58,638 bases of DNA from a virus (taxonomy: Duplodnaviria; Heunggongvirae; Uroviricota; Caudoviricetes). Positions 36,001 to 39,707 of the stretch are shown here, in pieces. Each line of letters begins with the position of its first letter. The first letter of the stretch is position 1. Position numbers: made by a program. The stretch spans positions 1-58,638 of the IMG/VR virus record IMGVR_UViG_2870479586_000001. One strand, 5' to 3'.

Positions 36001-39000
36001 GCCGGACACACCGGAAATACGGGCTGCCATCACCGCGGAGTTGCGTTCGTTCCTGCTGCGTGATGGTTATCCGCAGGGAGAACTGAAGGTATCGCGTATC
36101 AGTGAGGCGATTTCCGGTGCGAACGGGGAATACAGCCATCAGTTGCTTGCACCGACAGACAATATCTCCATTGCAAAAAATGAACTGGCGGTTCTGGGGA
36201 CGATTTCATGGACGTGACAAACGATGATTACATCCGTCTGTTGTCGGCACTGTTGCCCCCGGTCCGGCGTGGTCAGCCAGCGATCCGGCGATTGCCGGTG
36301 CGGCATCGTCATTAACCCGTGTTCATCAGCGTGCGGATGCCCTGATGCGGGAGCTGGATCCGCGCACCACCACTGAACTGATAAACCGCTGGGAGCGTCT
36401 GTGCGGCCTGCCGGATGAATGTATTCCGGCAGGGACGCAGACCCTTCGCCAGCGTCAGCAACGGCTGGATGCGAAGGTTAATCTGGCGGGCGGCATCAAT
36501 GAGGATTTTTACCTTGCACAGCTTGCTGCCCTGGGCAGACCAGACGCCACCATCACGCGATACGACAAAAGCACGTTCACCTGCTCATCTGCCTGTACTG
36601 ACGCGGTGAATGCGCCGGAATGGCGGTATTACTGGCAGGTCAACATGCCAGCCGCCACCAACACCACCTGGATGACATGTGGCGATCCCTGTGATTCCGC
36701 ACTGCGTATCTGGGGGGACACCATTGTCGAGTGCGTGCTTAACAAACTCTGTCCGTCTCATACCTACGTAATTTTTAAATATCCGGAGTAATCCATGCAT
36801 CGCATAGACACGAAAACCGCGCAGAAGGATAAGTTCGGCGCGGGTAAGAACGGTTTTACCCGTGGTAACCCCCAGACCGGCACGCCTGCCACCGATCTGG
36901 ATGATGACTACTTTGACATGTTGCAGGAAGAGCTTTGCAGCGTGGTGGAGGCATCCGGTGCCAGTCTGGAGAAGGGGCGGCACGACCAGTTACTTACCGC
37001 ACTTCGCGCGCTGCTGTTAAGCCGCAAGAATCCGTTTGGCGATATCAAATCGGATGGCACTGTGCAAACGGCTCTCGAAAACCTTGGTTTGGGAGAAGGC
37101 TCTGCATTACCGGTTGGTGTGCCTGTTCCGTGGCCTTCAGCCACTCCGCCAACGGGGTGGCTAAAATGTAACGGAGCAGTATTTTCTTCTGAAAAGTACC
37201 CAAATCTGGCAAAGGCTTACCCAACATTAAAATTACCAGATTTACGCGGTGAATTTATTCGTGGCTGGGATGATGGGCGCGGGATTGACTCTGGTCGTAA
37301 CTTATTATCTGCACAGAATGATGCAATTCAGAATATTGTTGGTTCTTTTGGGCGTACCAGCTTTTTAGAGACGTACTTAGTTCAGGGCCATTTAGTCAAC
37401 ATGGGCAAGTATTATCTACAGGTCTAAAGGAAGCCGAAATTATTGAGGGTTATGGCGCTTATAACTGGACATTCGACGCATCTCGCTCAGTTCGCACAGC
37501 ATCTGAAACCCGCTCCCGTAACATCGCCTTTAATTATATTGTGAGGGCTGCATGATAAGTAAAGCTGTATTAAATAATGAACTCATCGCCACAAAGGCCG
37601 GAGACATTACCGTTTATAATTATGATGGTGAAACACGGGAATATATTTCCACATCAACTGAATATCTTGCTGTGGGTGTCGGTATCCCGGCATGTTCCTG
37701 TTTAGATGCTCCTGGCTCATATAAAGCTGGTTATGCAATTTGCCGTTCTGCAGATTTTAACTCATGGGAATATGTGCCAGACCATCGCGGTGAAATCGTC
37801 TATAGCACCGAAACAGGAGAATCAAAAGAAATCACAGTTCCGGGTGATTACCCTGAAAATACAACCACTATCGCCCCGTTAACGTCATACGATAAATGGG
37901 ATGGTGAGAAATGGGTGACCGATACTGAGGCACAGCATAACGCCGCAGTAGACGCGGCAGAAGTACGGCGCCAGTCACTGATTGATGCTGCTATGGCTTC
38001 CATTAGTCTGATTCAGCTGAAATTGCAGGCCGGGCGGAAGCTGACGCAGGCAGAAACAACCCGGCTTAACGCTGTGCTGGATTACATTGACGCGGTGACT
38101 GCAACAGATACCAGCACTGCGCCGGATGTCATCTGGCCTGAACTACCGGAGGCGTAGGCCATTCAATATCTGGAGCACTGGAGGTATCAACCAGTTCCAG
38201 TGCGTCCAGATAATCCAGCCATAAATTATATTGTTCCAGCTCGTAACCTTTCAGACGACCAATAGCAGCTTTGCCAGGCCACTGATGGGTATTGATGTAG
38301 GTATTGACTTCTGAAACCAAAGATATCTTTTTCATTTCAGCCGCCAGCATCTCATCCTCTTTTGAAGGCGGCGGGAATTAATCCATATTGGCCGTCCTGA
38401 ACTGTCAGCGCCAATTTCTTTCCCTTCTGGATGCAGCCCAAGAAATTGCTCATATGTTTCTCTGGTAATTTCAATAACATCATCAGGAAGCGTTCCCGCA
38501 TCCTCATATTCTGGAAACAATTCTTGCAGATAAAAACTTTTACTTGCGGGTGAAAAGAATACTGAGTTCATTCTTACCGTCCAATGATTAACGCTGAGAC
38601 GCTGGTATCTGAAGGAAAGGCTGCATTCAGTGGTTTGTCGACTTTGAACACAATCGTATTATTCCCCCTAACAGCGGCAAAAGAACAAACCGCCGTCGCG
38701 TATGAACCTGTAATATTACTGGATACACCACCATAAGCTGTTGTTGATACCAGAGGGATAACGCCCAGCACCTTATTAGGAAATACAAAGGGCAATGTGG
38801 CTGTGGCAATATAAGACTTATTAGAACCTGTAATGGCATAAGCATTATCAGTCATTCCATTCATCGCCACTGGACCGCTTATACTTACAGTAACCATCTG
38901 AATGATTAGCCCGTCAGGTTGACGAATCACAAAATTTCCATTGCCACCAGTAACCGTCCAGAAAGACATATCAGGGATTTGGTTTCCCCGTTGCCCACAT

Positions 39001-39707
39001 TCGTTTTGCCGCTTCTCCCAAACCAACGTTTATGAAAATGCAGAAATAACGAGCAAATGGCATCATTCCTGCTTTTGTCAGGGGGATCTACCATGCTTAT
39101 TGGCTATGTACGCGTATCAACAAATGACCAGAACACAGATCTACAACGTAATGCGCTGAACTGTGCAGGATGCGAGCTGATTTTTGAAGACAAGATAAGC
39201 GGTACAAAGTCCGACAGACCAGGACTGAAAAAGCTGCTCAGGACATTATCGGCAGGTGACACGCTGGTAGTCTGGAAACTGGACCGACTGGGGCGCAGTA
39301 TGCGGCATCTTGTCGTGCTGGTGGAGGAGTTGCGCGAACGAGGCATCAACTTTCGTAGTCTGACGGATTCAATTGATACCAGTACCCCAATGGGGCGCTT
39401 TTTCTTTCATGTGATGGGTGCCCTGGCTGAAATGGAGCGTGAACTGATTGTTGAACGAACAAAAGCTGGACTGGAAGCTGCTCGCGCACAGGGACGAATT
39501 GGTGGACGTCGTCCCAAACTTACACCAGAACAATGGGCGCAGGCCGGACGATTAATTGCAGCAGGAATTCCTCGCCAGAAGGTAGCGATCATCTATGATG
39601 TTGGTGTATCGACACTGTATAAGAAGTTTCCGGCCGGAGATAAATGAAACCGTAGCACGTCGTATGCAAGATCGTGCTGCGGTTTATGCTTACCACTTGA
39701 AGATTCA

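Follow-up and report, generated by a model that had tools for sequence, protein, structure and literature searches.

Layout of the locus

The virus record IMGVR_UViG_2870479586_000001 (Caudoviricetes), analysed here over its whole length of 58,638 nucleotides (the window), holds a prophage whose tail module ends in an invertible DNA segment of 1.9 kb. The segment is bounded by two 26-bp recombination sites, pixL and pixR, and is followed by an intact gene, pin, for a serine DNA invertase. On the evidence of the site sequences, the identity between Pin and PinE and the occurrence of both orientations in nature, its identification as the P-inversion system of the e14 element of Escherichia coli K-12 is fully supported. 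A first-pass annotation of the same sequence had already described a Pin-type invertible tail-fibre switch, with perfectly inverted 12-bp inner arms around 2-bp cores, a fibre part and a tfa gene on one strand, their alternatives on the other, and a Pin-like invertase gene 55 bp outside the right site. All of this was borne out by the sequence, the open reading frames (ORFs) and the Pfam matches.

The segment carries a variable fibre part (Sv) and a tfa gene on the plus strand, and an alternative chaperone (tfa') and fibre part (Sv') on the minus strand. Positions 35200-41200 of the window were aligned with two 99.9%-identical E. coli chromosomes, those of strains CD45 and A38. The features of the locus are as follows:

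36208..36791, plus strand: ymfQ, a baseplate wedge gene resembling Mu gp48 (the intact homologue matches Pfam Phage_Mu_Gp48; annotated as YmfQ family in CD45/A38)
36795..37085, plus strand: Sc, the constant 5' part of the fibre gene, 97 codons; an ORF part outside the invertible segment that ends in ...ALENLGLGE across pixL
37072-37097, no strand: pixL, the left recombination site, CTCTCGAAAACC TT GGTTTGGGAGAA, crossover core 37084-37085
37086..37555, plus strand: Sv, a collar-type variable fibre C-terminus, now joined to Sc (Pfam Collar, 2.9e-15, on the intact 253-aa homologue)
37552..38157, plus strand: a tfaE-like tail-fibre assembly chaperone for the collar-type Sv, intact (Pfam Caudo_TAP, 5.9e-32; annotated as tfaE in relatives)
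38129..38571, minus strand: tfa', the alternative chaperone, 147 aa in relatives (Pfam Caudo_TAP, 6.4e-27, on the intact homologue)
38574..39024, minus strand: Sv', the alternative fibre C-terminus, in silent orientation (delimited by in-silico inversion; weak Gp53-like_C match)
39013-39038, no strand: pixR, the right recombination site, TTCTCCCAAACC AA CGTTTATGAAAA, crossover core 39025-39026
39061..39063, minus strand: an ATG in the spacer between pixR and pin, the start of an ORF (MPFARYFCIFINVGLGE...) that runs leftward across pixR and into the cassette that is silent at the time
39093..39647, plus strand: pin, an intact gene for a serine DNA invertase of 184 aa (Pfam Resolvase, 1.2e-51, and HTH_7, 1e-15)
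39114..39177, no strand: a candidate recombinational enhancer in the 5' end of pin, made up of two Fis-like 15-mers, GTATCAACAAATGAC(C) and GTGCAGGATGCGAGC

The ymfQ gene lies directly upstream of the fibre gene and is frameshifted as sequenced. The intact homologue of Sv has matches to the tip of T4 gp37 and to PDB 9cuy, whose chain is labelled 'Short tail fiber', and the Gp53-like_C match of the intact Sv' homologue is weak, at 24.5 bits slightly below the cutoff. The pin gene starts 55 bp past the end of pixR at 39038, leaving a spacer of 54 bp. The ORF that opens at the spacer ATG is annotated as a 163-aa hypothetical protein in CD45/A38, and the ATG is the counterpart of the start of 'stfE' in K-12. 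For K-12 e14 the proteins StfE and StfE2 have been described, and the chimera StfE2 has been credited with an effect against phage T2 through the blocking of adsorption (PMC12529663).

Recombination sites

Each site consists of two 12-bp half-sites around an asymmetric 2-bp core, the architecture of an invertase site. The inner 12-bp arms of pixL and pixR are perfect inverted copies, a match that a repeat finder extends to 19/20, and the cores, TT in pixL and AA in pixR, are inverted relative to each other. The gap between the sites is 1,915 bp and the distance from core to core 1,941 bp. Searches for the 12-mer arm (with at most one mismatch) and for the centre AAACCNNSGTTT found pixL and pixR as the sole occurrences in the window.

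Taken simply as a repeat, the pair exceeds chance by a small margin: two or more matches to the 12-mer (at most one mismatch) were obtained in 4 of 100 shuffles, and an inverted match of 22/26 was reached in 3 of 60 shuffles of the 5-kb region. The significance of the pair lies elsewhere, because the sites are identical to those of K-12 e14 and natural inversions break there. Base for base, pixL and pixR are each 26/26 identical to the sites of the P segment in E. coli K-12 MG1655, and TTGGTTTGGGAGAAGG, the repeat at which P inversion takes place in K-12, is present at 37084-37099.

A further inverted repeat of 26 nt, I1 (39063-39088 and 39939-39964, 22/26), was considered and set aside as probably due to chance, since an equal score was obtained in 3 of 60 shuffles. 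Its arms bracket pin, one lying in the pin leader and the other inside the downstream GIY-YIG gene.

The invertase Pin and a candidate enhancer

Pin is identical to K-12 PinE at 180 of 184 residues (98%) and shares 147 identical residues (76%) with Mu Gin; its closest solved structure is that of Gin (3UJ3, E 3.7e-95). It has the make-up of a small serine recombinase, with an N-terminal resolvase domain, Ser9 within the motif YVRVST, and a C-terminal helix-turn-helix. In Hin, the residues that contact Fis or the enhancer, and that are specific for the invertases dependent on them, are K47, K/R48 and K/R51 of helix B, and Q151, R154 and L155 of the DNA-binding domain (PMC3798978). Pin has K46, K47 and R50 in helix B and the patch Q150-A-G-R153-L154 (QxxRL), the residue numbers being those of Hin minus one, an offset inferred from the alignment with Gin and the text of PMC3798978.

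In the Hin system the enhancer lies within the 5' end of the invertase gene, roughly 100 bp from the nearest recombination site, and its two Fis sites are spaced by 48 bp (PMC3798978). The two Fis-like 15-mers in pin, at 39114-39129 and 39163-39177, are centred at 39122 and 39170, thus 48 bp apart, with the proximal one 96 bp from the centre of pixR; in Mu gin they occur at equal positions and in near-identical sequence. A simple scan with the Fis consensus is too permissive and returns far too many matches, so that solely the pair coinciding with Mu gin was kept. Identity at synonymous third positions is highest in codons 1-15 (0.67 versus about 0.48 elsewhere), a modest excess. Since the geometry fits that of the Hin enhancer, we infer that the switch may make use of Fis and an enhancer.

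Both orientations of the segment

Rather than in a single orientation, the 3-kb region was found in the orientation of the window in 48 finished E. coli genomes and in the form obtained by in-silico inversion in 20, as counted across genomes; inversion within a culture is known from K-12 only. Three of the 20 genomes with the inverted form match it at 97-98% identity across 99-100% of the query length, and a probe for the Sc-Sv' fusion junction matches 39 genomes. Strain KE58 has a true e14, located at icd and accompanied by mcrA; there the blocks of homology change strand exactly within the two 26-bp sites. Strain CD45 (NZ_CP182220.1) contains two copies of the four-cassette switch, at 4.31 Mb and 1.216 Mb, which are 98% alike and lie in opposite orientations. 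Because each copy has its own pinE, either invertase could act on the sites of the other copy.

Inversion of e14 has been detected in clonal cultures of MG1655 by whole-genome sequencing and polymerase chain reaction (PCR) (PMC4272514). The 1,797-bp P segment is inverted at TTGGTTTGGGAGAAGG by PinE as well as by PinQ, as followed by quantitative PCR with one or the other supplied (PMC12529663).

Comparison with known inversion systems

The likeness to K-12 e14 extends beyond the sites and the invertase to the flanks: ymfQ and the constant fibre part precede the segment and pin follows it. Both elements have the tfaE/collar-type cassette, at 85-89% identity, and the spacer ATG that reads into the silent cassette is identical. 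The second cassette differs: here it consists of the Gp53-like_C-type Sv' with its 147-aa chaperone, in K-12 of StfP/TfaP, and the K-12 segment has the order stfP/tfaP - tfaE/stfE. The segment measures 1,941-1,945 bp here versus 1,797 bp in K-12, and here it is the collar-type cassette that stands in the expressed orientation. Finally, the element in the window is a full-length prophage at thrW, whereas K-12 e14 is a cryptic 15-kb remnant at icd.

Downstream of pin, where K-12 e14 has mcrA, the minus strand carries a gene with a LEM-3-like GIY-YIG domain (39705-40529; Pfam, 3.8e-14), which may be cargo of the defence or moron type.

With phage Mu the locus shares the gene order gp47-gp48-S-U-U'-S'-invertase, the 26-bp site architecture and identical distances in gin, 96 bp from the recombination site to the first candidate Fis site and 48 bp on to the second. 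In sequence the sites diverge from those of Mu, down to the core dinucleotide, which is GA/TC in gix and AA/TT here; the G segment of Mu is 3 kb long, with much longer variable parts, and its constant part spans 169 codons versus 97 here. The Hin system of Salmonella has a recombinase of the same subclass, with the basic helix-B residues that mark the invertases conserved; its sites likewise measure 26 bp, and its enhancer lies some 100 bp from the closer one, as does the candidate here. Hin, however, flips a promoter in the flagellin switch, whereas here the 3' part of a coding sequence is exchanged.

The tail and baseplate genes, Sc of the fibre gene included, share 97% identity with those of the Shigella phages SfV, SfII and SfI through pixL, and the homology ends exactly at 37098, at the inner edge of that site. 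The identical 26-bp sequence is found in the SfV fibre gene (positions 1456-1481 of the SfV stretch examined), but the 5 kb examined contain neither an invertase gene nor a second site, and the fibre C-terminus there is single and fixed. From the end of homology and the SfV copy of the sequence it follows that pixL coincides both with a module boundary and with a conserved coding motif, ENLGLGE.

Reading frames and run deletions

In the window as sequenced, the fibre of the current orientation ends after 210 aa (versus 253), and after in-silico inversion at the cores the alternative fusion stops at 114 aa. In CD45/A38 both fibres are intact: the current orientation encodes one of 253 aa, which has a Collar domain, with a 200-aa chaperone after it, and the form inverted in silico one of 247 aa with the 147-aa chaperone after it. 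Sc is thus fused in frame to either of the two 3' parts, with a chaperone gene after each, in CD45/A38 and not in the window as sequenced. Neither orientation is productive in the sequence as given, whereas both are productive in essentially identical DNA.

The first-pass annotation had placed the alternative part one frame off after inversion and had regarded the current orientation as the only productive one. The former holds for the sequence as given but not for CD45/A38. The latter fails because the deletion after 37356 truncates the current fibre as well; only the effect of the deletion pair in Sv' had been seen. A check of the junction frame in both orientations, which the same annotation had proposed, was made in silico with the outcome just given.

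Between 35200 and 40700 the comparison with CD45/A38 revealed no private substitutions in the window and five private one-base deletions, all of them in runs:

after 36255: C6 to C5, in ymfQ
after 37356: CCC to CC, in the expressed fibre C-terminus Sv, whose ORF ends at 37427
after 38372: G4 to G3, in the alternative chaperone tfa', which is split
after 38982: T4 to T3, in the alternative fibre C-terminus Sv'
after 38999: T3 to T2, in the alternative fibre C-terminus Sv'

It is the deletions after 38982 and 38999 that put Sv' out of frame with Sc upon inversion. Together with deletions at 41825 and 42626, seven one-base run deletions cluster within 6.4 kb (36255-42626), and the other approximately 52 kb of the window show two indels, at 6681 and 53241, relative to the nearest finished genomes. 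A search of 5,426 finished genomes gave best full-length matches that, without exception, have the longer runs at the three positions tested (37356, 38982 and 38999). Short probes over 38982/38999 and over 37356 gave identities of 98.1% and 99.2%, and the matching records exceeded the query in span by 2 bp and 1 bp, respectively.

One of the clustered deletions breaks a gene for an AraC-family regulator (41293-42225). The deletion at 53241 (G5 to G4) falls in a large gene for an inverse autotransporter, which already carries a frameshift annotation in a 99.98%-identical reference.

The many private run deletions, unaccompanied by private substitutions, form a signature of homopolymer undercalling and are unlike natural decay, so that the deletions are likely to be errors of assembly or polishing. 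If they are undercalls, the actual DNA probably encodes a fully two-way, productive switch. Programmed frameshifting was discarded as a source of the broken frames, as the near-identical genomes are uninterrupted at every position.

Alternative explanations

Taken together, we consider it very likely that the locus is an e14-type Pin/P-segment switch, a member of the Fis/enhancer-dependent serine-invertase systems of the Hin/Gin/Cin/Pin class, and that in the real DNA it works in both directions. Directly visible in the data are the anatomy, the identity with K-12, the in-frame fusions in near-identical genomes and the two orientations in nature. Several points weigh against this reading. The tight clustering of the deletions within 6.4 kb is unlike a uniform sequencing error and calls for an extra assumption; the ymfQ-fibre-pin module is present in multiple copies in many strains (median 2 places per genome), and such a multi-copy module, or a segment of mixed orientation in the culture, could have defeated polishing and so explain the clustering. 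Judged from the assembled sequence rather than from reads, real mutations keep a small share of the probability. The dependence on Fis and an enhancer is suggested by homology and spacing, and a change of host range by this particular pair of cassettes is a prediction.

The most serious competitor, though an unlikely one, is that the frameshifts are real and the prophage is decaying, having lost both fibres, one chaperone and ymfQ by slippage in short runs while Pin and the sites stayed intact, so that the segment may flip without a functional fibre. The deletions are, after all, present in the sequence as given and are clustered at the right end of the prophage instead of being evenly spread, and the cryptic e14 of K-12 indicates that such modules decay while the switch keeps working. 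Yet five private deletions without a private substitution in 5.5 kb are very unlike natural decay, and seven of the eight single-base indels outside the noise of that comparison are run deletions, as homopolymer undercalling would leave them. The three deletions tested are absent from the best-matching finished genomes, and like deletions also occur in genes unrelated to the phage tail, at 41825, 42626 and 53241. A more elaborate version, that the seven deletions are real and non-random, appears very improbable; they would have arisen by slippage or mutagenesis from repeated cleavage and religation, or by selection silencing both fibres while keeping Pin, and the flipping segment would persist because it serves the host, for example as an anti-phage decoy like StfE2 that is read from the spacer ATG. 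A benefit to the host might also be the main reason for which the switch is kept, inversion changing the cassette read from the spacer ATG and thereby yielding a short chimeric fibre-tip protein that blocks the adsorption of other phages. The same ATG and leader are present here and read into the silent cassette in either orientation, and StfE2 of K-12 e14 sets an experimental precedent with its activity against T2 (PMC12529663), but StfP, the cassette that gives StfE2 this activity, is absent. Because the prophage is of full length (apart from the split ymfQ) and its SfV-like tail module is 97% identical to that of infectious phages, the ordinary role of such a switch in phage host range would be sufficient, and we regard a mainly host-directed function as rather doubtful.

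Two other explanations can be given hardly any weight. One is a switch that is productive in its present orientation alone, the alternative C-terminus being one frame off, so that it would be effectively locked or of an ON/OFF type. The stop after 114 aa in the fusion of Sc to the inverted segment would agree with this, but the present orientation is itself frameshifted, both fusions are in frame in near-identical genomes, and genuine 247-aa Sc-Sv' fusions have been annotated in 39 genomes. The other takes the sites as nothing but the conserved ENLGLGE coding motif of a fibre family in a static arrangement, in line with the identical sequence in SfV, which lacks an invertase and a second site in the stretch examined, and with a bare-repeat score barely above chance. 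Against it stand the two orientations of the segment among natural isolates, whose breakpoints fall inside the sites, the inversion demonstrated in K-12 at exactly this repeat (PMC4272514, PMC12529663), and the intact invertase gene 55 bp away.

Prophage context

The switch is part of a 41-kb prophage of the SfV/e14 family, integrated at thrW between the tRNA-Thr gene (1369-1444) and a repeat of the 3' part of the tRNA (42534-42592), and lies at the end of its tail module. The prophage adjoins proA; a location at icd, as for e14, had been considered on account of the first ORF of 417 aa and was rejected, the annotation of relatives giving proA and a prophage at thrW.

The direct repeat of the tRNA is followed by a second integrase gene (42620-43753, minus strand) and a degraded lambdoid prophage, and the window thus shows tandem prophages at thrW. 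In strain Z1323HEC0355 the second element is located directly at thrW, without the first prophage. Paired ORFs of 226 and 261 aa (at about 4.5-5.9 kb and 49.4-50.9 kb) were considered as insertion sequences but correspond to lambda exo and bet of the two tandem prophages. In relatives, the exo-bet-gam regions 4311-6393 and 49284-51367 hit the same regions, each with 98% identity. As they lie in direct orientation about 45 kb apart, they form a possible substrate for the deletion of everything in between.

Proposed mechanism and implications

In the proposed mechanism, dimers of Pin would bind both 26-bp sites, and the synapsis of the sites would be aided by the enhancer in the 5' end of pin. 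Pin would then cut the 2-bp cores (37084/85 and 39025/26), and rotation and religation would leave the 1.9-kb segment flipped. The promoter of the fibre gene, its start and its first 97 codons would remain fixed, so that inversion would join Sc in frame either to the collar-type Sv with its chaperone or to Sv' with its own. The expected outcome would be two receptor specificities within the phage population, and an effect on host range may be expected.

Inversion of the P segment by Pin has been known since the 1980s, and many finished E. coli genomes carry the annotations pinE and tfaE at this locus. As biology the switch is already known and ordinary, and adds little. What the stretch does call for is caution: its reading frames are untrustworthy, and no conclusion of a locked or one-way switch should therefore be drawn from this sequence. 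At the same time it provides a clean example of one four-cassette segment that is found in both orientations across E. coli genomes, with a left site that marks the exact end of the homology with the non-switching phages of the SfV type.

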